This document shows, in pieces, positions 1 to 10,549 of a DNA stretch of 64,000 nt (position 1 is its first letter; the number at the start of each line of letters is the position of its first letter). This DNA is from an uncultured Poribacteria bacterium (GTDB lineage Bacteria; Poribacteria; WGA-4E; WGA-3G), in contig CATQHZ020000001.1 of NCBI GenBank assembly GCA_958296135.2, positions 1,120,001 through 1,184,000 on the forward strand. Reading direction: 5' to 3'. Position numbers and translations under genes: made by a program. The notes under the pieces are model-generated. The model was not told the origin of the DNA. It did no database searches and was given only the letters and a program-made list of their open reading frames with translations.

Positions 1-921
1 CTTCGTGCAGGACAGGGATGGATAATTTCCCTTACGCTAGATACGAGTGCTGGCAAAATGTATTGGCGCGAAAAAGGTAAGATTCGTTGTGCGAACCTCG
101 ATGGAACAAACCCGCAAGATTTGCTCACGGGACTGGTATCTGACTTAGTGCTAGATACTACCGGCGGCAAAATCTACTGGACCGAATTTGACGTGAGCAC
201 CGACGCAGATAAAATTCGTTGTGCGAACCTCGATGGTTCAAACCCCCAGGACTTGCTCACAGGATTGGCATCCGTATCTAGTCTGATGTTGGACACTATC
301 GGCGGCAAAATGTATTGGCGCGAAAACGGCTGGAACTTGCGCGCAGATAAATTTCGGTGCGCAAATCTGGATGGAACGGCCCCGCAAGAGCTCGTCACGG
401 GATTTGATGTCGGTTCCTTCAGACTAGATACTATCGGCGGCAAAATCTATTGGATCAAACATGACTCAAGCACCGGAGAAAACAATTTTCGGCGTGCGAA
501 CTTGGATGGCACAAATGTCCAAGCCCTCGTCACGGGCTTGGATGAAATTTGGTCTGTCACACTTGATGCTGCCGGCGGCAAAATCTACTGGCGCGAGTAT
601 GACTCGGACACGCAAGAAGATAAAATTCGGCATGCGAATCTCGATGGCTCAAACCCGGAGACTCTCTTTACGAAGAAGGGATCTCCGGGCATTGTACCTA
701 TCGTCGTGTTTCGCACAGAAGGTGCCGAGAGCGTGGTTGCTGCGGATGTCAATGGCGATGGGGTTGTGAACATTCAGGATTTAACCTGGGTCGCCTCGCG
801 TTTTGGGAGAACGGGGCCGGATAGCGCGGATGTTAACGGCGATAATGTTGTTAATATTATGGATCTTGTCTTGGTGGCTGGGGCCCTAGATGCTGAAGCC
901 GGCGGGCCTAGCGAAGATTGA
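1..921 (+). CDS. YWTD/LDL-receptor class B repeat beta-propeller protein with C-terminal dockerin (5' partial)
   Basis: Repeated 'GGKIYW..KIRCANLDG(T/S)NPQ.L.TGL' units and two EF-hand-like dockerin repeats (DVNGDGVVNIQDL, DVNGDNVVNIMDL). The frame is open back to base 1. Confidence 0.85.
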   Translation, partial: LRAGQGWIISLTLDTSAGKMYWREKGKIRCANLDGTNPQDLLTGLVSDLVLDTTGGKIYWTEFDVSTDADKIRCANLDGSNPQDLLTGLASVSSLMLDTIGGKMYWRENGWNLRADKFRCANLDGTAPQELVTGFDVGSFRLDTIGGKIYWIKHDSSTGENNFRRANLDGTNVQALVTGLDEIWSVTLDAAGGKIYWREYDSDTQEDKIRHANLDGSNPETLFTKKGSPGIVPIVVFRTEGAESVVAADVNGDGVVNIQDLTWVASRFGRTGPDSADVNGDNVVNIMDLVLVAGALDAEAGGPSED

Positions 922-1295
922 GACCAGGAGGGCGCGGGGCATCGAGCCCCGAGGTCTCTCCTACAAGGGGACATTGAGACGTGGGAGGTTGCGCCGCCGG
1001 TAGGAGGGACATCCCTGTCCCGATAAGGAATCAGCGAGACGCGGGAGGTTGCGCCTACAGCATCGAGACCAGGAGGTCTCTCCTACAAGGGGACATCGAG
1101 AGGCGGGAGGTTGCGCCGCCGGTAGGAGGGACATCCCTGTCCCGATACGGAACCAGCGAGACTACCGGGGAGGAGTCGAGCCCCGAGGTCTCTCCTACAA
1201 GGGGATATCGAGACGTGGGAGGTTGCGCCGCCGGTAGGAGGCGGAACCAGCGAGACTACTGGGGGGCATCGAGACGCAGGCGGTCTCTCCTACCG
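917..1295. repeat. Intergenic cluster of GTAG-type REP-like palindromes
   Basis: Multiple copies of tcgagaccaggaggtctctcctac (rc GTAG-GA-GAGACC-loop-GGTCTC), gggaggttgcgccgccggtaggagggacatccctgtcccgat and ggaggttgcgcctac. Confidence 0.85.
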
Positions 1296-1326
1296 AACAA
1301 GGAAGTAGACGTTTTTTTTTCGATAG

Positions 1327-2856
1327 ATGGGGGTGTTATTCATGCTAAACTTGAGCGATGTGCTCAATCCTTCAGCGAATGTGCAGGTGCATGCACACTG
1401 GGATGCGATGGCAGACGGGACGTTCAAACTATACGAAGATTCCCCACAACACGTGGAGTTGTTCAGCCTGTCTCCTGTCTCCCCGGTCCAGGCGTATGAG
1501 GCATCGGCGTTCACAGCCTTTCTCCCACCCTCGGACGTGACGGTGGGAGACGTATGGGAGTTGGAATTGGACAAGGTTGTCCCGTTCCTTTACCAATTTC
1601 ACACTGGGGCGACTGGGAAGTTAGTGCACGGGCAGGAAGGCGCGTTCGCCTGCTTACGGGCCCTTTCATCGGGTTATGCAGATATCGCGTTCCGCATCCA
1701 TGCAGAATTTACGTTGGAGAGTCCGGCACATAGGGAGTGGGCAAAGGCCAACGCGAGCGATGGTTGGGAGCCCCAGGCGCGTTTTATTCCATCGCAGTTC
1801 GCGGGACGCGTGCGGATCAATCTCAAGACGGAGCGGGTTCGCGATTTTTCGCTCTACCTGCCACCCCGCAATAGCAATGTTGATATCAACGCCTTTCGGT
1901 GCGCTGATATGGTATTTGTGCCGCGCATGGAACTTGGTGCCTCTGATAGGGCAGACCGCGGTGAGATTGCGTGGGATAGTGCTATCTCCGAGGAAGCCGC
2001 GCGCAAGGCGTTGGAACTGAAGTTCTACCGATTTGCTCAAATTGCGTGGAAACCGATTGAGGAGGCTGTTGCGTTTGCAAAAGCGGCGAACCGGCCCCTT
2101 CACGCGGTTCTGGTTTGGGGGCCGCTTGACGACGAATCGTGCTGAGCGAATGGCAAGAATTTGAGGGCGGGTCCGCTCTCTTCGCCGGAAGTTATTGAGA
2201 CGCTCAACGCGCAGTTTGTCAATACGTGGGTGCTACTTCGTGAGTTGCCGGCCCTGATAGATGGCGCGAGAGGGGAAGGTGCCGGTCGCGTCGCCGCGAA
2301 ACTCCAAGAGCATTACACCGATTCTGTTGATATTTTGGCACTGACTCCGGAGGCAGAGGTGATTATGCATCAGCCGGAGATGGCACTTATTGGGCGCAAT
2401 AAGGCCCCCTCTTATCTGACACTGCTTCGGCGTTCTGTGGAAGCGTTTGAGGGGAAACCCTTGCACCGCCCGATTAGTTTGGGGGAAAGGCAGGAGGTAT
2501 CAGGCACTTTTCGCGCCCCTGGCGATGGCTATCAGGATTACACGCCGGTTGAGATTGATGCCACCGCGTTTGAAAACGGCGGTGTCCTCCACATTGAGGT
2601 GCAGGTAGGCGACGACGGGGCGGAAGGCACGTGTGCCCTGTTTGATGCCGACACCGAGCTGCCGACAGAAGGAACGCCGGATGACGCGTTGGCTGGCCGT
2701 CGGGCTATTCCGCCCGGTGAAAAGGGACATGTTTTTCACCGTTTCAAACAGGGGCAGTGCTTTCGGCTGGGCGTGACAGGCAGCTGGGAAAACGAGAAGG
2801 GTAGCACCAACACCTTTCGCGCGCGTATTGCTATCGTGCCAAACCCGGTAGATTGA
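1327..2856 (+). CDS. Selenoprotein N (SELENON)-like protein, about 509 aa, with in-frame UGA (2143-2145) predicted as selenocysteine
   Basis: ORFs 1327-2145 and 2161-2856 are in the same frame, separated only by TGA. Read-through gives HAVLVWGPLDDESC-U-ANGKNLRAGPLSSPEVIETLNAQFVNTW, resembling SELENON [43 protein letters not shown] (from memory). FRIHAEF and GAFACL motifs are also shared. Confidence 0.88.
2146..2185 (+). promoter_or_regulatory. Putative bacterial SECIS element
   Basis: Hairpin GAGGGCG-GGUC-CGCUCUC (2163-2180) with the loop 24 nt after UGA, plus a lower stem GCGAA (2146-2150)/UUCGC (2181-2185). Confidence 0.75.
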
Positions 2857-2874
2857 TTTGTGGGGCGAGGGGGA

Positions 2875-3282
2875 AACCTGTCGCGCGCGTTTCAAATCTC
2901 CGCGCGCACAAAGGCGAGATACGCTCCTGACATTAACACATCGAGAGGCGGGAGGTTGCGCCGCCGGTAGGAGGGACATCCCTGTCCCGATACGAAATCA
3001 GCGAGACGCGGGAGGTTGCGCCTACCGGGAGAAATCGAGCCCCGAGGTCTCTCCTACAAGGGGACATTGAGAGGCGGGAGGTTGCGCCGCCGGTAGGTGG
3101 GACATCCCTGTCCCGATACGGATACAGCGAGAACAGAGGTTGCGCCTACCGGGGGAAATCGAGACCAGAGGTCTCTCCTACCGGGGAAATCGAGCCCCGA
3201 GGTCTCTCCTACCGGGTGGAACCTGTCGCGCGCGTTTCAAATCTCCGCGCGCACAAAGGCGAGATACGCTCCTGACATTAAC
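2875..3282. repeat. REP cluster (2938-3219) flanked by a 63-bp exact direct repeat (2875-2937 and 3220-3282)
   Basis: aacctgtcgcgcgcgtttcaaatc...cctgacattaac occurs twice. The second copy contains the 3' end of the permease gene. Confidence 0.85.
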
Positions 3283-4646
3283 GCGATGAAAAGCAGCACG
3301 AGCAGTAGCAAATCCACTGCGGCGGTGTTGAAATCTCGGTTGAGGCTGCGTGTGTCTTTAAAGCGCGGCATTGCGGCGGGTTCAACCTTTCTCTGTGACA
3401 TGCCGGTGGGCACGCCGATGAGATGGAGACTCTCCGCATCGTGTCCATCGTTCTCGATGATGAATTCCCGGAATTGGCGGGCGTAAGGCTGAACGTTCTC
3501 CAAGAATTGGAGGTGTCTCTCGAACCCTGTGCCGGCGAACGTCTCCATGAGATGCTGGACGAGTGCTACAGGAGAGATTCGGATGATGGCACGTGCCTCC
3601 TTAACTTGTTGGATTTCCTGTGCTAAGCGTTCTCTGTTTAAGCGTTCATGTTGCTGTGCGTCTTTGGTGACGTACGCTCCCTGTTCTTGCAGGACAGCGT
3701 ATCGTTTCGTGTTTCGGATCCGGATGTATTCGCGATACTGCTCCTTAAGTGCCGTATCAAGTTGTCCCCGGCGTTCCTGAAATTCGGCGCGGGACATTGG
3801 TGATGAGAACCCCCGGACAATGGTGGCGAGGGTGCTCGGCATGAAAACGACGAAGGTTACCCAAGCCAAGAGGAGAATCACGAGACTCACGGCGCTGCGT
3901 TGCATCCGTGCAGAAACGAGCAGGCCTAACGCGAGGAAAAGGCAGACGTAGAGGATTGCGATGATGAAGATGATGCCTAGCCGGCCCCACTCTCCTGCAG
4001 TGAGTTGGACGCTGCGGGACGTGGAAATCACGAGCAGGTTCATCAAGGTGGCGAGTGTGAAAGGGATGAGGAGACTGATGAGCGCGCCGAGGAACTTGCC
4101 GAGTAGCACGGCGTGCCGTGGAATGGCATTTGCTAGCATTAAGCGCAGTGTGCCGCTTTCTCGCTCACCGGCGATGGCATCAAATGTGAACAGCAGCGCG
4201 GTAAGACTCAACACATAGCCGACGATGAACCCCCAATCCACTTTGGTAACCTCTGGGCGGATATTAGCCAAATTGGGTCTGACGGAGGGATAGTGCAGCC
4301 GCCAGAAAGATTTCAGCGCACCCCGCCGCCACGAGTGGGATTCTCCCCGAACAACGTCGGGTATAAATGCCTCGCCGCCTTCGGCACAGAAGTGGAGCGG
4401 TGACGGCGTTTTGTAAAAGTTGCCGGGGCCCTTTTGTGCAAGGGTATACAGGTTGTCTGCCCGCGCCGTTAAAGCATTTCGGGTGTTGGTGATAGCATCG
4501 TGATACTTCTGCATCCGTTTTGGATGTTCGCGGAGATGCGTCACGGCATTGGTGAGCATCAATGCGAGGAGCAGGAGGAGTGTCAAGCCAAAGCGGAGGC
4601 TATTGAGATTCTCGTAAATTTCGCGTGTTGCGATGTGCCAAATCAT
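3237..4646 (-). CDS. ABC-2 type transporter permease subunit (type A, copy 2)
   Basis: Multiple TM helices and the motif FDAIAGERESGTLRLMLANAIPR..LLGK. Paralog of 6256-7659. Confidence 0.88.
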   Translation of the reverse strand: MIWHIATREIYENLNSLRFGLTLLLLLALMLTNAVTHLREHPKRMQKYHDAITNTRNALTARADNLYTLAQKGPGNFYKTPSPLHFCAEGGEAFIPDVVRGESHSWRRGALKSFWRLHYPSVRPNLANIRPEVTKVDWGFIVGYVLSLTALLFTFDAIAGERESGTLRLMLANAIPRHAVLLGKFLGALISLLIPFTLATLMNLLVISTSRSVQLTAGEWGRLGIIFIIAILYVCLFLALGLLVSARMQRSAVSLVILLLAWVTFVVFMPSTLATIVRGFSSPMSRAEFQERRGQLDTALKEQYREYIRIRNTKRYAVLQEQGAYVTKDAQQHERLNRERLAQEIQQVKEARAIIRISPVALVQHLMETFAGTGFERHLQFLENVQPYARQFREFIIENDGHDAESLHLIGVPTGMSQRKVEPAAMPRFKDTRSLNRDFNTAAVDLLLLVLLFIALMSGAYLAFVRAEI

Positions 4647-4700
4647 TTGTGTGTCCTCTGTATTCCCGGTAGGAGCCGCTCCGAGCCGCTCCGTTTGTGA

Positions 4701-6215
4701 TTACACCTCACTCCTCACGAACACCAGAAATATCGCCATAAATAAGACAAAGTTGGTTAGCACTAGGAGGAAAAGATGCGGCACTGCGCGCTGTGCGTTT
4801 ACCGCAATCCCGCTTCGCTGGTAAGAGAACGGCGGCAGCGTGCTCCAATCTGCCTCCGCTTTATCTGACAGAAACCACTCTCGCGCCGCGTAAACCTCTG
4901 TATCGTAGAGATAATTGACGAGTGCCCGCCGCCACTGCCGGGCTGCGACAAAAAAGTCTTGGATGCTCCCCCAATCGGTGCCTGCCCATGCTTGTGTTGC
5001 TGCATCATACATGCCGATAGGTGAAAGGTTCAACCACATTCTGTCCACTGCCGCCTGCTGGCCGTAGATATCCTTGAGTGCGGCATCTCGGACGTGCCAT
5101 GTCTGCTCTGCAGTCTTTATCATCAGCGGCACCAGGAATCGGAAATAATTCTGTGCGTGCGGTACCAGCGTTTCGCCCCTCGGTCCAACTTCACTATACT
5201 GGATGCTTATCCAGTAGTAATACCTTAAGGTTCTCCGCGAAGAGTTAAAGTCTGCTCCCACACTTCCGTATCCGTGTATGCCTAAATCCGGTTCCTCTCC
5301 AGGAACCAGATCATTGTGGAGGAACTTGAGGCGTTCTCTATCAAATTCTGTCCACAGTTGCTCTATCTGCTCAAAAGCGGTATCTCTGCGCGCCCTCGGG
5401 TCTTCCGGCGGATCCGTGGCGACTAAGATGACGTTTGGATACACCAGCACTAAGAAGCCCCATGCGAACATAGAGACTATCAAGGCGGTGCTTGTGCGGC
5501 GTGTCGCCGCCGAGATGAGCATTCCGATGAGGTAGAACACCGAGAGATACGCGAGCGATGCTAGCACGATGCCGCCGATGCGGAGAAAATCGTCGGTGCT
5601 CAGCGCGACGGCGGTGGCGGTAGTTAGCAAAATCAGCGCGAGGAGCAGACTCATCACCAACGGCACCAGGAGGCAGAGCATTGCACTGATGTATTTGGCG
5701 AGCAGGATGTATCCGCGGCGGATAGAATTCGTCAGGACTAAGCGTAACGTGCCGCGTTCGTGTTCTCCCGCAATCGCATCGTAGGCGAAAATGAGTGCCA
5801 TCAGGCTGAGCACTACCTCGAAGATGAAGACGATGTCAATGGCGGTGAAGATATTGAAGAGCGGATTATCCGCCCCGTGTGTGAAAGCATCCCACAGTGT
5901 CGGCACCAAATCGTGCGCAGCCGATACCGAGTTGCCCAACCGTTTATCCAATCCGACGTTGAAAATACTTAACGGATTCGGCGGTCTGGCGAGTTTTATC
6001 TCTTCGGCCAACCCCGCCATATAATTCTTTTTCTCCCGCAATTTCTGTTGATGCGTTTTGACAGCGGTGTTGTAGTCGGCTAATCGCCGCTCGTAGTCTT
6101 CAATGAGCACGGCCGTATTGGCGACGATTAACAGCAACATGATAAAGAGTGCCGCTGCGAAGCGGAATGTCATCAGATTATCAAGCAGTTCTCGGCGGAT
6201 AAGTGTTGTTAGCAT
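4701..6215 (-). CDS. ABC-2 type transporter permease subunit (type B, copy 2)
   Basis: YDAIAGEHERGTLRLVLTN motif and TM helices. Paralog of 7720-9228. Confidence 0.88.
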   Translation of the reverse strand: MLTTLIRRELLDNLMTFRFAAALFIMLLLIVANTAVLIEDYERRLADYNTAVKTHQQKLREKKNYMAGLAEEIKLARPPNPLSIFNVGLDKRLGNSVSAAHDLVPTLWDAFTHGADNPLFNIFTAIDIVFIFEVVLSLMALIFAYDAIAGEHERGTLRLVLTNSIRRGYILLAKYISAMLCLLVPLVMSLLLALILLTTATAVALSTDDFLRIGGIVLASLAYLSVFYLIGMLISAATRRTSTALIVSMFAWGFLVLVYPNVILVATDPPEDPRARRDTAFEQIEQLWTEFDRERLKFLHNDLVPGEEPDLGIHGYGSVGADFNSSRRTLRYYYWISIQYSEVGPRGETLVPHAQNYFRFLVPLMIKTAEQTWHVRDAALKDIYGQQAAVDRMWLNLSPIGMYDAATQAWAGTDWGSIQDFFVAARQWRRALVNYLYDTEVYAAREWFLSDKAEADWSTLPPFSYQRSGIAVNAQRAVPHLFLLVLTNFVLFMAIFLVFVRSEV

Positions 6216-6255
6216 GAGGGTTGTCCGATGTTTTCAGTTTGTAGGCTAGGAGGGC

Positions 6256-7659
6256 TCAAATCTCCACGCGCACGAAGGCAAGATACGCCCCCAATAGCAG
6301 CACGATGAGAAACAGCACGAGCAGTAGCAAATCCATTGCGGCGGTGTTGAAATCTCTGCCCAGGTCGAGTGTATCCTTGAACTTTGGAATTGCTTCCATC
6401 GCGACTTTTTTCTGTGACATCCCTTCCCGCACGCCAACAACGTGGAGACTCTCCGCATCGTGCCGGTCTGTCTCAATGACAAATTTCTGGAATTGGCGGG
6501 CATAAGGCCGAACGTTCTGCAAGAATTGCCGGTGCCGCTCGAACCCTGTGCCAGCAAACGCTTCAAACAGGTGCTGCACCATCGCGACGGGTGAAATTCG
6601 GGTGATGCTGCGCGCTTCGCGAACTTGTTCGAGCTGCTGGGCTAAGTGTTCTTGGTTCAAGCGTTCCTGTAGTTGTGCTTCTTCGGTGACGTATTCTGCG
6701 AGTTCTCGTCTTCTTCTTTCGGGCTGCTCTGCGTCATAAGTGTCATATTTCTTCCGAAGTTCGGAGCCAATTTCCTTTCGTCGTTTCCGGTACTCATCGG
6801 AGGACATGGGCGATGAGAATCCGCTTGCGATGGAGGCGAGCGTGTTCGGCATGAATACCACCAGGCCTACCCACGTTAGCAAGAGAATCACGAGACTTAC
6901 CGCGCTGCGTTGCACGCGGGCGGAGACGAGCAAGCCTAACGCGAGGAAAAGGCAGACGTAGAGGATTGCGATGATGAAGATGATGCCTAGCCGGCCCCAC
7001 TCTCCTGCAGTGAGTTGGACACTGCGGGACATAGAAATCACCAGCAGGTTCATCAAGGTGGCGAGTGTGAAAGGGATGAGGAGACTGATGAGCGCGCCGA
7101 GGAACTTGCCGAGTAGCACGGTGTGCCGTGGAATGGCATTTGCTAGCATTAAGCGCAGTGTGCCGCTTTCCCGCTCACCGGCGATGGCATCAAACGTGAA
7201 CAGCAACGCAATCAGACTCAACACATAGCCGACGATGAATCCCCAATCCACTTTGGTAATGTCCGGCTCGATGTTGTCTACGTTCGGTGTGACAGTGGGA
7301 TATTTCAGCCGCCAAATGCTGCGTAGCCCACTAGCCCAGCCCCAATCGCCGCTCCCGCCGTGGACAACGTTCGGCAAAAAGGCTTCTCCGCCCTCTGCAC
7401 AGAAGTGGAGCGATGACGGCGTTTTGTAAAGCCTGCCGGGCCCTCTGCGGACAAGTTCATACAAGTTGTCAGCCCGGTCTCTCAAACTGTTCAGAGATTC
7501 GGCGACTGCGTCGTGATATTTCTGCATCCGTTTTGGATGTTCGCGCAGATGCACCACGGCGTTGGTGAGCATCAGTGCGAGGAGCAGGAGGGTTGTCAAA
7601 CCGAAGCGGAGGCTATTGAGATTCTCGTAAATTTCGCGTGTTGCGATGTGCCAAATCAT
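6256..7659 (-). CDS. ABC-2 type transporter permease subunit (type A, copy 1)
   Basis: Same motifs as 3237-4646, with the identical N-terminus MIWHIATREIYENL. Confidence 0.88.
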   Translation of the reverse strand: MIWHIATREIYENLNSLRFGLTTLLLLALMLTNAVVHLREHPKRMQKYHDAVAESLNSLRDRADNLYELVRRGPGRLYKTPSSLHFCAEGGEAFLPNVVHGGSGDWGWASGLRSIWRLKYPTVTPNVDNIEPDITKVDWGFIVGYVLSLIALLFTFDAIAGERESGTLRLMLANAIPRHTVLLGKFLGALISLLIPFTLATLMNLLVISMSRSVQLTAGEWGRLGIIFIIAILYVCLFLALGLLVSARVQRSAVSLVILLLTWVGLVVFMPNTLASIASGFSSPMSSDEYRKRRKEIGSELRKKYDTYDAEQPERRRRELAEYVTEEAQLQERLNQEHLAQQLEQVREARSITRISPVAMVQHLFEAFAGTGFERHRQFLQNVRPYARQFQKFVIETDRHDAESLHVVGVREGMSQKKVAMEAIPKFKDTLDLGRDFNTAAMDLLLLVLFLIVLLLGAYLAFVRVEI

Positions 7660-7719
7660 TTTTGTGTCACCCGATGTCGGGGTAGGCGCGGTTTGAAACC
7701 GCGCCTACCGGACGGCCCT

Positions 7720-9228
7720 TTAGACTTCGCTTCTCACAAAAATCAGAAATATCGCCATAAACAAGACGAGGCTAATCATGAGCAAGAGCATCATATCCGG
7801 CAATGCGCGCTTTGCATTTATCTCCACGCTTCTTCTCTCAAAAGAGAACTGCGGTAGTGTGCTCCAATCCGCCGCGCTTTTGTCTGCCAAAAACCATTCC
7901 CGTGCACCGAACGCGTCTTTATCCTCGTAGTAGGTTATCACCGTTTGCCGGTACTGCCGCGCGGCATCAAAAAAATCGCGGATACCGAGGAGATTTGTGC
8001 CGGCCCAGGCTTGTGTTGCGGCATCATATACCCCGAGGGGCGAGAGTTTCAACAGGGTTCTCTTAAGGTTCGCCTGCCGCACGAGGGTGTCCACCAGTGC
8101 CTCTTTCCGAATGAGCCAGGTCCGGTCTGCTGTTTGAATCGTCAGCGGGATGAGGAATCTGTGATAATTTTGGACGTGTGGCACGGCTGGTTGGTATTCT
8201 TCATCAATTTCATCAAAGGCCAGCGTCCTGTCATATATATTAAAAAGTGTTAACCGATTTTGGTAATAGGATTCCACAGCATACCCCCAATACCCTTTAA
8301 TGTTAAACTTCGAGTCTTCCCCCGGAAAAGCGTCCGCTGCGAGAAAGCGTTGCCGTTCCCTGTCAAACTCCTCCCAAATCTGTTTGATGTGATTCAAGGC
8401 GGAGGCGGCACGCTCTTGGGGGATGTCCGATGTCTCGAGCGTCGCGAGCATCATGTTCGGATAGACGAGCACCAGAAAACCCCACACGAACATTGCGAGC
8501 ATGAGTGCAGTGCTGGTGCGGTGCGTTATGGCGGAGATCAGGAGTCCGATGAGATAGAACACCGACAAGTATGCAATGGATGCGAGGAATATCCCCCCGA
8601 TGCGGAGAAAGTCGTCGGCGCGCAAGGAAATGGCGGCGGAGGTTGTCAACAAAATGAGCGCGAAGAGCAGACTCATTACCACTGGCACGAGGAGGCACGT
8701 CATCGCGCTGATATATTTGGCAAGCAGCAGGTGGCCACGGCTGACAGAGTTCGTCAGCACGAGGCGTAAGGTGCCGCGTTCACGTTCTCCGGCGAGCGCG
8801 TCGTAGGCGAACATCAGTGCTATTAAGCTGAGAACTACCTCAAAAATAAAACCCAGGTCTATCGCAGAGAAGAGGTTGAGGAGCGGATTGTCGGAACCGT
8901 TCATGCCTGCTTCCCACAGCGTTGGCACCGTGTTATACATCAGCCAGAGCTCGTTGCCCAACCGTTTGTCCAATCCGACGTTGAAGATACTCAACGGATT
9001 CGGTGGCCGGTTGAGCACTATTTCTCCGTCTGCATACATTTTTTTCTTTTGCAGTTCCTGCCGATTCGTTTTAACAGCGGTGTTGTAGTCCCCCAATCGC
9101 CGCTCGTAATCGTTGATGAGGACCGCCGTATTGGCGACGACTAAGAGCAACATGACAAGCAGTGCGGCGGCGAAGCGGAACGTCATGAGGTTGTCGAGCA
9201 GTTCTCGGCGGATGAGTGTGGTTAACAT
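7720..9228 (-). CDS. ABC-2 type transporter permease subunit (type B, copy 1)
   Basis: Start placed at MLTTLIRRELLDNL (9228) by match to the paralog. YDALAGERERGTLRL motif. Confidence 0.87.
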   Translation of the reverse strand: MLTTLIRRELLDNLMTFRFAAALLVMLLLVVANTAVLINDYERRLGDYNTAVKTNRQELQKKKMYADGEIVLNRPPNPLSIFNVGLDKRLGNELWLMYNTVPTLWEAGMNGSDNPLLNLFSAIDLGFIFEVVLSLIALMFAYDALAGERERGTLRLVLTNSVSRGHLLLAKYISAMTCLLVPVVMSLLFALILLTTSAAISLRADDFLRIGGIFLASIAYLSVFYLIGLLISAITHRTSTALMLAMFVWGFLVLVYPNMMLATLETSDIPQERAASALNHIKQIWEEFDRERQRFLAADAFPGEDSKFNIKGYWGYAVESYYQNRLTLFNIYDRTLAFDEIDEEYQPAVPHVQNYHRFLIPLTIQTADRTWLIRKEALVDTLVRQANLKRTLLKLSPLGVYDAATQAWAGTNLLGIRDFFDAARQYRQTVITYYEDKDAFGAREWFLADKSAADWSTLPQFSFERRSVEINAKRALPDMMLLLMISLVLFMAIFLIFVRSEV

Positions 9229-9300
9229 GCTACTTTCTCGGCACTTGATTTGCTCCACTTGTCCCGACTTCTCGGCGGATGAGTGTGGTTAACATGCTAC
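9202..9300. repeat. 32-bp exact direct repeat with 35-bp unique insert
   Basis: ttctcggcggatgagtgtggttaacatgctac at 9202-9233 and 9269-9300. Confidence 0.92.
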
Positions 9301-9480
9301 CGCTCCCTAGAACTTATGATAATCTGGACAAATCTATCCTAATCTGACCTGTCCTCTTATCTGTCGTAGTTGCTGTTTCAACGCGTCGTGCCTCCGAGAC
9401 ACACGAGGTGTGCCTACTATGAGGGCTTATAGTCGCTCCGCAGCCGTTTTACCTCTCCGTCAAGCTCGCGGCGAGGGTTC
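9300..9480 (-). ncRNA. Putative TnpB omega/reRNA scaffold
   Basis: Position inferred from TnpB biology: it overlaps the tnpB 3' end and runs to the right end. Boundaries are approximate. Confidence 0.55.
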
Positions 9481-10549
9481 TTAAATTATGCGCGGCATTC
9501 AAGTCGCGGTCGATACCCACGCCACATGCCTCGCAGTGATATGTCCGCTCCGAGAGGGACAACTTCGTCTTCTTCTTCCCGCAAGCACTGCACGTCTTCG
9601 ATGACGGGAAGTTCACCGGTGCTTCGATAATCTCAACGCCGTGTGCCGCTGCTTTATACCGAAGCATCGTCAGGAAACCACTTAATGACGCATCGCTCAA
9701 CGCCTTTGCAAGACGGCGGTTTTTCAACAAGCCTGCCACGCGTAGACGCTCGATGCCGAGAACGTCAGCCGACTTTACAATCGCCGTGCTTGCCTTGTGA
9801 TGGGCATCCTCACGGAGACAGCAGATACGATAGTGAATCTTCTGAACGCGCACCTGCTTCCGATACCAATTCCTGCTTCGGTAAACCGAACGAGAGAGCT
9901 GACGCTGCGCACGCCGCAACTTCCGTAGATAGCGGTAGAGTGCCTTTGGGTTTTCAAACTCAACACCATCGGATGTCACGGCTAGGGTTTTGATACCTAC
10001 ATCAACACCAACTACCCGCATAGGACCCGCCTCAGAACGCACACGTGGCGCGCTGTCGGAAACCACCTTCACGAGAACCGATAGAAACCACCTGCCTGCA
10101 CGTTTTGAGACGACACACCGCCGAATCTCGCCACGCCACCGTAACTTCTCGCGCAGGCGAACCCAGCCAATCTTCGGTAGTTTGACACGTTTCTTATCAA
10201 TTCTCACACGTTCATTCGGTTGGTAGGAAGTCCTACTCGCTCGGGTGTGATAACGTGGGAATCGATTTTGACCGCGCCGCCACCGTTTGACTGCGTCATC
10301 AATGTGCATCACAGCGTTCTTTGCTGCACGTTGGTCGAGTTCCTTACACCACGGATATGTCTCGTGTTTCACGGCGTTGAATCGAACGTTCAACGTGTAA
10401 CCACTGCGCCACTCGTTTTCGGCGAGTCCCGCCTTGAAATCTGAGAGTGCATGGTTACGCGCCACGCGTGCATAACCACAATGTCGTGCAAGCAGCGTCG
10501 CCTGCTTATTATTCGGGTCCAACGCCATTAAATGCGTTTTCAATGTCAT
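9449..10549 (-). CDS. tnpB: RNA-guided endonuclease TnpB
   Basis: RuvC-I GVDVG, RuvC-II IERL, Zn finger CSAC..CEAC and RuvC-III DRDLNAA. N-terminal LDPNNKQ..ARHCGYAR HTH region. The catalytic D/E/D appear intact. Confidence 0.93.
   Translation of the reverse strand: MTLKTHLMALDPNNKQATLLARHCGYARVARNHALSDFKAGLAENEWRSGYTLNVRFNAVKHETYPWCKELDQRAAKNAVMHIDDAVKRWRRGQNRFPRYHTRASRTSYQPNERVRIDKKRVKLPKIGWVRLREKLRWRGEIRRCVVSKRAGRWFLSVLVKVVSDSAPRVRSEAGPMRVVGVDVGIKTLAVTSDGVEFENPKALYRYLRKLRRAQRQLSRSVYRSRNWYRKQVRVQKIHYRICCLREDAHHKASTAIVKSADVLGIERLRVAGLLKNRRLAKALSDASLSGFLTMLRYKAAAHGVEIIEAPVNFPSSKTCSACGKKKTKLSLSERTYHCEACGVGIDRDLNAAHNLRTLAASLTER

Follow-up and report, generated by a model that had tools for sequence, protein, structure and literature searches.

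A bacterial member of the selenoprotein N family in an uncultured Poribacteria genome, with an in-frame UGA that very probably encodes selenocysteine

The locus analyzed here lies in a 64,000-nucleotide stretch of DNA (hereafter the window) from an uncultured Poribacteria bacterium, in which an open reading frame (ORF) on the plus strand, 1327-2145 (272 amino acids, aa), has the C-terminus VWGPLDDESC, with the Cys codon TGC at 2140-2142 followed directly by TGA 2143-2145. Past this TGA the frame stays open (ANGKNLRAGPLSS...) to TGA 2854-2856, giving a read-through protein of 509 residues with selenocysteine (Sec, U) at position 273; the downstream ORF as listed starts at TTG 2161, five in-frame codons past the TGA, and comprises 231 aa. 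An earlier interpretation made from the DNA letters (hereafter the sequence-only reading) had noted that the two ORFs share a frame and are parted only by a TGA after Ser-Cys, and had proposed that they form a single Cys-Sec protein of about 509 aa, a homolog of animal selenoprotein N (SELENON), that standard annotation would split. The frame coordinates, the conserved TGA and the continuous homologs described below bear out this gene structure, and gene callers indeed yield two hypothetical halves. As the start codon, ATG 1342 (M6) is more likely than ATG 1327, because an 85%-identical ortholog (L008) begins there and the sequence GGGGGTG is found 6 nucleotides (nt) upstream; the protein would then have 504 aa, with Sec at residue 268. 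A change in the genetic code was considered and rejected, TGA being an ordinary stop that ends 6 of the 24 window ORFs of at least 300 aa and the read-through gene itself.

A search with the read-through protein against 176 genomes of the phylum gave matches in 131 of them (in 103 of the 133 high-quality genomes and in 10 of the 31 genera), with up to 15 matches per genome and only one in the window's own genome; among the matches listed in this search, all but two contain the in-frame TGA. In the 30 best (close) loci, without exception, the TGA directly follows the motif D-[DN]-E-S-C at an identical column and is itself directly followed by the conserved motif ANGK.LRAGPLS. The same column holds TGA in 17 of 18 more divergent paralogs (TGG in the remaining one, L037) and in all six Planctomycetota loci, where it comes after DDQSC or DNQSC and some 113 conserved residues lie beyond it. 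The ratio of nonsynonymous to synonymous substitution rates (dN/dS, Nei-Gojobori) is 0.14-0.27 past the TGA (7 pairs) and 0.14-0.31 ahead of it (6 computable pairs). This purifying selection past the TGA implies that the downstream part is translated in the same frame.

These data bear directly on the possibility of a pseudogene or an assembly error, in which a gene that once encoded Cys would have acquired the TGA by mutation or through faulty sequencing. Apart from the stop itself, all that speaks for it is that two of the four contigs (of four runs) spanning the stretch have homopolymer indels away from the TGA, at 2116 and 2432. All four contigs (these derive from a single sample, which may be the source of the window itself, and hence are not independent) show only the letters TGA at 2143-2145, and the same TGA recurs in 131 genomes' worth of copies with purifying selection acting past it. 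This explanation is refuted as far as sequence data allow, and we assign it virtually no probability. Elsewhere in Poribacteria the family forms tandem arrays of at least three copies (G140:C69:132488-140404, G164:C1:2833312-2842875 and protein P0002), and in such arrays gene callers join the C-terminal half of one copy to the N-terminal half of the next.

A HMMER profile built from 15 bacterial members and run against 1.84 billion representative proteins gave 992 matches at E ≤ 1e-3 (clusters at 50% identity), 247 of them at E ≤ 1e-30, and among these are animal proteins, namely P0202 from Vombatus ursinus (wombat; E 1.2e-49), P0206 from Nematostella vectensis (E 4.2e-49) and P0220 from the jellyfish Sanderia malayensis (E 6.3e-48). 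Used in turn as queries, P0202 and P0206 retrieved vertebrate proteins named "Selenoprotein N" or "SELN protein", human A0A804HLD6 included. In BLASTP comparisons with these three animal proteins, the window protein is 27-29% identical over 296-381 columns (E 8e-32 to 3e-35, calculated for a three-sequence set). The alignment includes the blocks GAFACL/GAVACL, FRIHAEF, SQF.G, VRDF/VQEF, P.MEL, WG.LDD.SC and EEA..LE, continues beyond Sec as G..LR....S..I..LN..F..TW, and so covers both sides of the Sec column. At that column, echinoderm UniRef sequences read WGALDDQSC[U shown as C]GSGRTLRE, and 21 distinct eukaryote-type loci from metagenomes contain DDQSC followed by TGA, 19 of which continue with GS[GA]RTLR, with an intron directly after the TGA in the other two. 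The homology with SELENON and the shared Sec column are established by these computations; the colinear blocks that the sequence-only reading had listed for the animal protein are present in the BLASTP alignment, and the expectation that the similarity would extend past the UGA holds at the profile and BLASTP levels. A word-based search returned 115 relatives. Most are Poribacteria sequences annotated as "hypothetical proteins", which are about 298 aa long and stop at the Cys; a few are full-length (526-564 aa), and some match only the C-terminal 120 aa. Genome contig searches show that the family also occurs in Planctomycetota.

The AlphaFold2 model of the 85%-identical ortholog (predicted local distance difference test, pLDDT, 89.5 for the whole protein) suggests three domains (Table 1). 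The core, residues 1-375, was modeled separately (pLDDT 91.1, predicted template modeling score 0.88) because the fold search with the whole protein was dominated by the C-terminal β-sandwich. A PDB fold search with the core model gave no match with a probability above 0.1 outside the thioredoxin part; the matches to that part, all of the thioredoxin fold, are 7tkv, 3ira, 2lst, 3f9u, 1sen, 2ju5 and 9i3u (E 1e-4 to 4e-3). The Cys-Sec pair is located in the loop between the strand 253-258 and the helix 269-276 of the ortholog model, so that the dyad is predicted to occupy the loop that joins the first strand of the domain to its first helix, the site of CxxC in thioredoxins. For the β-sandwich, the PDB matches are the Tk-SP jelly-roll (3afg), GOLD, CBM6 and P-domains (E 3e-6 to 1e-3), with low template modeling scores over the whole query. 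Animal SELENON and the short bacterial forms (about 386 aa) lack this domain, and P0097-P0116 and P0110 match only this part of the read-through protein. Other Poribacteria proteins contain the β-sandwich fused to Redoxin/AhpC-TSA domains or to extracytoplasmic function (ECF) sigma factors.

At least three bacterial architectures can be distinguished: the core only (about 386 aa), the core with the β-sandwich (about 510 aa, as in the window) and the core with a redoxin domain (560-630 aa). Some family members are also fused to ECF sigma-factor domains or leucine-rich repeats (P0123, P0110 and P0140, the last corresponding to L057). A Pfam scan of 40 members detected Thioredox_DsbH in five, weakly (best E 0.002), EF-hand families in five, all of them eukaryotic, Redoxin/AhpC-TSA in two (paralogs with a C-terminal peroxiredoxin-like domain) and Sigma70 in one. 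The window protein has no match to Thioredox_DsbH (DUF255, PF03190) at the Pfam gathering threshold, and the likeness to this family appears, from the model, to be at the level of the fold only. The sequence-only reading had held that the bacterial protein lacks the transmembrane and EF-hand N-terminus of the eukaryotic protein and has an extra C-terminal domain of about 130 aa; the Pfam results agree with the former, and the model accounts for the latter with a β-sandwich of about 120-130 aa.

How relatives are built at the Sec column can be judged from an alignment of 184 sequences, of which 38 lack the N-terminal side, 100 stop exactly at the column and 46 continue; thus, 100 of the 146 sequences that have the N-terminal side terminate exactly at the Cys. 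Cys appears at the column in 22 sequences that are our own U-to-C read-throughs of loci translated with TGA as U, in two vertebrate UniRef sequences, where C may stand for U, and, at the protein level, in six database proteins of unnamed origin (P0119, P0121, P0123, P0129, P0138 and P0185). The remainder have Gly (P0006, P0008 and P0050), Trp (P0005 and P0019, at the protein level), Ala (P0163 and two vertebrate sequences), Phe (P0178), Ser (P0206, a mis-modeled eukaryotic gene model) or a gap (six mis-modeled eukaryotic gene models). When homologs are surveyed for Cys or UGA, as the sequence-only reading had proposed, TGA is found to be widely kept, with Cys in the six database proteins. In the DNA of one group of orthologs, 81-87% identical to P0006, the codon is TGA in two, GGC in three and GGA in one of six loci. 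We considered whether Gly could be an artifact of gene calling under code 25 or code 4 and rejected this, the DNA itself reading GGC or GGA in four of the six loci. Within this group GGC/GGA alternates with TGA (L065-L068 versus L063-L064), and L037, as mentioned, has TGG. In these paralogs, Sec has been replaced by residues one base away (Gly, Trp) instead of Cys.

The many proteins that stop at the Cys are what would be expected if the locus consisted of two genes, with UGA 2143 a true stop and the 231-aa ORF translated separately from TTG 2161. The split made by gene callers, the 100 of 146 terminating sequences, the abundance of proteins of about 298 aa and the presence of a TTG five codons beyond the TGA are all compatible with such an arrangement. 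However, the ANGKN codons between the TGA and the TTG are conserved as protein, the feature conserved across two phyla is the TGA column and not the start codon, the Cys-bearing and animal homologs run unbroken across the column, and the model places both halves within one thioredoxin fold. We therefore regard separate translation as extremely improbable.

The genome encodes the Sec machinery that a UGA-containing gene would require: the genes for tRNA-Sec (selC), SelB, SelA and SelD, for which the sequence-only reading had called for a search, were all located (Table 1). The selD gene contains one in-frame TGA and probably encodes a selenoprotein likewise. The assembly also includes a second contig, C2 (143,886 bases, with 7 tRNA genes), whose G+C content is 36.8%, compared to 54.4% in contig C1 (5.0 Mb); C2 may represent a foreign element or bin contamination.

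Downstream of the UGA, a hairpin resembling the bacterial selenocysteine insertion sequence (SECIS) begins 17 nt past the TGA, with a 7-base-pair (bp) stem, and is part of the minimum-energy fold. Across 29 close sequences, 98.0% of the 203 cells form standard pairs, compared to 36.9-69.0% when the 3' partners are slid by 1-3 columns; one pair is changed on both sides, and the covariation score was reached in 11 of 500 shuffles. With divergent paralogs and Planctomycetota included (51 distinct sequences), 96.9% of 357 cells are paired (37-72% in slid registers), three pairs are changed on both sides, with G-C replaced by A-U in eight sequences and C-G by U-A in two, and none of 500 shuffles reached the covariation score. 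The synonymous positions of the codons GCG GGT CCG CTC are almost invariant, whereas those of the adjacent codons vary. In Escherichia coli, according to the accessible text of PMC8659212, the SECIS is a stem-loop 11 nt past the UGA, and G23 and U24 of its loop are essential for SelB. The window hairpin fits this rule in its spacing and in the G and U of its loop, with a stem that begins 6 nt further downstream.

Read-through that does not involve selenium, in which a near-cognate tRNA (Trp or Cys) acts at a low level or the stop is suppressed and the hairpin is a mere stimulator, would fit the paralogs that have Trp (TGG) or Gly (GGA/GGC) at the column, where other residues are perhaps tolerated, and it is established that hairpins past stop codons can stimulate read-through. 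Against it, the genome has a complete Sec machinery, with a selD that itself contains UGA, the column is occupied by Sec in animal SELENON, and the loop contains G and U, which in E. coli are required for recognition by SelB (PMC8659212). We consider this alternative very improbable.

Several observations nevertheless weigh against the assignment of the locus to a Sec-containing SELENON homolog. Insertion of Sec at UGA 2143-2145, which we consider very probable, is deduced from sequence, and a search for RNA runs covering the locus found none. Pfam and NCBIfam searches gave no significant match to the read-through protein, a PDB sequence search at E ≤ 1 gave no relative, and an Rfam scan of 1200-3200 at E ≤ 10 gave only chance-level matches and no SECIS model. 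The fold energy of the 68 nt past the UGA is unremarkable (z = -0.98, with 36 of 200 shuffles folding as well), so that the case for the hairpin rests on its conservation, and there the independent covariation events are few because most of the hairpin sequences are close kin. The structural arguments come from models of the ortholog instead of the window protein. The context of the dyad is S-C-U-A in the window and S-C-U-G in animals, with SCUG also found in the paralogs L040-L054. Finally, Gly or Trp at the column is odd for a catalytic Sec, and the respective copies may be decayed or non-catalytic.

With these points taken into account, we hold it highly probable that the region 1327 (1342)-2856 is one gene that encodes a cytoplasmic thiol/selenol oxidoreductase of about 505 aa, belonging to the SELENON family, with UGA read as Sec. 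Under this assignment, UGA 2143-2145 would be decoded as Sec during translation, with the hairpin and its GGUC loop recruiting SelB that carries Sec-tRNA(Sec), as within other bacterial selenoprotein genes. The Cys-Sec pair could then alternate between a selenenylsulfide and the reduced thiol/selenol form and would reduce oxidized protein thiols (disulfides or sulfenic acids) or peroxides. Selenenylsulfide cycling has been proposed for the SCUG motif of SELENON by analogy with the GCUG motif of thioredoxin reductase (PMC12839072, in its accessible part). The β-sandwich probably binds a partner or substrate. Lipoprotein-type signal peptides are present in many relatives; none was seen by eye in the window protein, which is accordingly predicted to be probably cytoplasmic. 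The fusions of paralogs to peroxiredoxin-like domains or ECF sigma factors point to a role in oxidative-stress defense or sensing.

The hairpin can be compared directly with that of the eukaryotic genes, given that the proteins align from the UGA onward codon for codon and without gaps. In 19 distinct eukaryote-type loci (metagenome loci within L069-L099, first 54 nt past the TGA), a 16-bp helix, the selenocysteine redefinition element (SRE), pairs +10..+25 with +33..+48 around a loop at +26 to +32; 89.8% of 304 cells are paired, seven pairs are changed on both sides, and none of 500 shuffles reaches the score. The bacterial helix (+21..+27 with +32..+38, loop +28 to +31) falls inside the span of the eukaryotic hairpin, and the two pairing axes are one position apart (i+j = 59 in the bacterial and 58 in the eukaryote-type sequences), with GGUCC (Gly-Pro) kept at the apex in several cnidarian-like sequences. 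A downstream SECIS_1 element was detected in one of nine eukaryote-type loci and in none of the four bacterial loci tested (L007, L008, L057 and L058). That the animal SRE lies over the same codons as the bacterial hairpin is a new observation. The shared position may reflect common descent or, equally, may reflect a shared need for structure at that distance. A tentative scenario, which we view as possible but doubtful, is that animal SELENON derives from a bacterial selenoprotein acquired by an early animal ancestor, and that the SRE is a remodeled bacterial SECIS. Should this hold, eukaryotic mRNAs would have retained a recoding signal of bacterial descent and put it to a new use, which would be a rare event; given the positional match, the origin of the SRE can be tested directly.

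The origin of the family was addressed with unrooted trees, which included no outgroup and no sponge, choanoflagellate or algal sequences. In a FastTree phylogeny of 141 N-domains, the 13 eukaryotic sequences form one clan (support 100) with a long stem (0.95), within a group that also holds 3 Planctomycetota and 45 unlabeled sequences and is split from 24 Poribacteria and 56 unlabeled sequences with support 99. An IQ-TREE "quick" analysis of 70 sequences recovered the same split (Shimodaira-Hasegawa-like approximate likelihood ratio test, 87) and placed nearest to the animals eight unlabeled lipoprotein-type proteins (P0160, P0163, P0169, P0170, P0197, P0214, P0217 and P0226; support 82). Approximately unbiased (AU) tests gave p 1.8e-7 for a clan of animals with all 13 Poribacteria sequences and p 0.0165 for one of animals with the 11 window-type Poribacteria sequences, a group chosen after the tree was seen.

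The trees and the AU tests disfavor a sponge-to-Poribacteria transfer, which the sequence-only reading had suggested, next to a bacterial origin, as the source of the gene. In such an animal-to-symbiont transfer, Poribacteria would have acquired a real selenoprotein from their sponge host; they are established sponge associates, the family has multiplied in them (to as many as 15 matches per genome), and an unrooted tree permits a root on the bacterial side of the animal stem. However, the long-stemmed animal clan is nearest to the lipoprotein-type sequences and Planctomycetota instead of Poribacteria, both AU tests speak against joining animals with Poribacteria, and the family is spread over at least two phyla and 992 clusters; the sequences compared included none from sponges, which would be decisive. 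We judge this transfer to be quite improbable. The other half of the suggestion fares better: a bacterial origin of the family is plausible and the more economical reading because the bacterial side is broad, with two named phyla and hundreds of clusters at 50% identity.

Table 1. Coordinates of the gene, its parts and other features mentioned in the text (window positions unless a contig is given)
Feature	Position	Strand	Evidence or remarks
Whole read-through gene	1327..2856, final TGA stop included	+	open frame, ortholog start, dN/dS
N-terminal β-rich domain	1342..1971	+	common to animal SELENON; GAFACLRA, FRIHAEF, PSQFAG, PRMEL; ortholog residues 1-210
Thioredoxin-fold domain	1990..2451	+	ortholog residues ~217-370; β-α-β ... 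β-β-α
Redox dyad Cys272 (TGC) + Sec273 (TGA; predicted)	2140..2145	+	conserved column; Cys267/Sec268 counted from ATG 1342
SECIS-type hairpin	2163..2180	+	stem GAGGGCG 2163-2169 / CGCTCTC 2174-2180; loop GGTC 2170-2173 (GGUC)
C-terminal β-sandwich (jelly-roll-like)	2488..2841	+	8 strands, ortholog residues 383-500
YWTD/LDL-receptor-class-B repeat protein, 3' part	1-921	+	dockerin type I as its last domain
Four consecutive paralogous ABC-2 permease genes	3240-9258	-	each with a DUF3526 region
IS605 OrfB/TnpB-like gene	9452-10549	-	Cas12f1-like TNB domain
tRNA-Sec	contig C1 2394171-2394264	complement	ARAGORN
selB	contig C1, immediately adjoining tRNA-Sec		SelB-wing_3, 58.6 bits
selA	contig C1 3965983-3967089		517.9 bits
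selD	contig C1 2864299-2865270, outside the window		350.6 bits; one in-frame TGA

The gene neighborhood in the window provides no functional lead (Table 1); dockerin type I domains, such as the one that ends the upstream gene, are unusual outside cellulosome-forming bacteria. The gene is flanked on both sides by repeat arrays with a unit of about 60 nt (919-1290 and 2908-3217), which comprise five copies of a 99-nt family, eight copies of a 24-nt core and GC-rich inverted segments, and look like intergenic repeats of the repetitive extragenic palindrome (REP) or miniature inverted-repeat transposable element (MITE) kind.

What is new here is the occurrence of a known protein family in a further domain of life, where both its architecture and its recoding signal differ. 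Mutations in SELENON lead to congenital myopathies. The catalytic chemistry and structure of the protein are still poorly defined, with the PDB holding no sequence relative of the window protein, and the accessible part of a 2026 review (PMC12839072) describes SELENON only as having a "thioredoxin-like motif". The large and diverse bacterial branch, being soluble and anchor-free, lends itself to structure determination, redox-potential measurements and substrate trapping, and a deep bacterial alignment could help judge patient missense variants. The bacterial family also opens the question of the source of the animal gene, and in standard annotation hundreds of such genes appear as pairs of "hypothetical" fragments. 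A Poribacteria SelenoN may have been mentioned in conference or thesis work. No bacterial selenoprotein N is described in the literature searched (supplements excepted); the word "bacteria" is absent from the accessible text of PMC7474598, and text matches to "selenoprotein N" in BSepDB (PMC13326102) were rejected as instances of the words "selenoprotein name".

Among known systems, the DsbH/DUF255 and ERp19/AGR2 class appears, in the model, to resemble the second domain of the window protein in fold and in where the redox motif is located. Unlike the window protein, with its adjacent Cys-Sec, these proteins use CxxC or CxxS, and they lack the SELENON N-domain, the similarity being below the Pfam threshold. 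Mammalian thioredoxin reductase, with its GCUG motif, likewise has an adjacent Cys-Sec pair able to form a selenenylsulfide, but its dyad is on the flexible C-terminal tail of a flavoenzyme, whereas that of the window protein is predicted to lie inside a thioredoxin fold, with no flavin domain. The E. coli fdhF-type SECIS is, as in the window, a hairpin that lies within the coding sequence soon after the UGA and whose apical loop contains G and U; the stem in the window begins 17 nt past the UGA, in contrast to 11 nt in E. coli, and no bulged U was identified in the window hairpin. The fdhF loop itself is presumably GGUC.

The closest counterpart is animal SELENON (SEPN1/SelN), which the accessible part of PMC7474598 describes as a reductase of the endoplasmic reticulum (ER) lumen that acts on SERCA2, with calcium sensing; bacterial counterparts of these partners are not to be expected. 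Unlike the animal protein, the bacterial one has no transmembrane segment or EF-hand and is probably cytoplasmic instead of residing in the ER lumen, possesses an added C-terminal β-sandwich, reads SCUA in this copy, and would rely on the bacterial route of Sec insertion, with a 7-bp GGUC hairpin and no 3' SECIS_1. The two proteins share the core of about 370 aa, in which a β-rich N-terminal domain is combined with a thioredoxin-like domain, the Cys-Sec pair at the same column of the motif WG.LDD[EQ]SCU..G..LR, and an RNA hairpin in the codons directly past the UGA.

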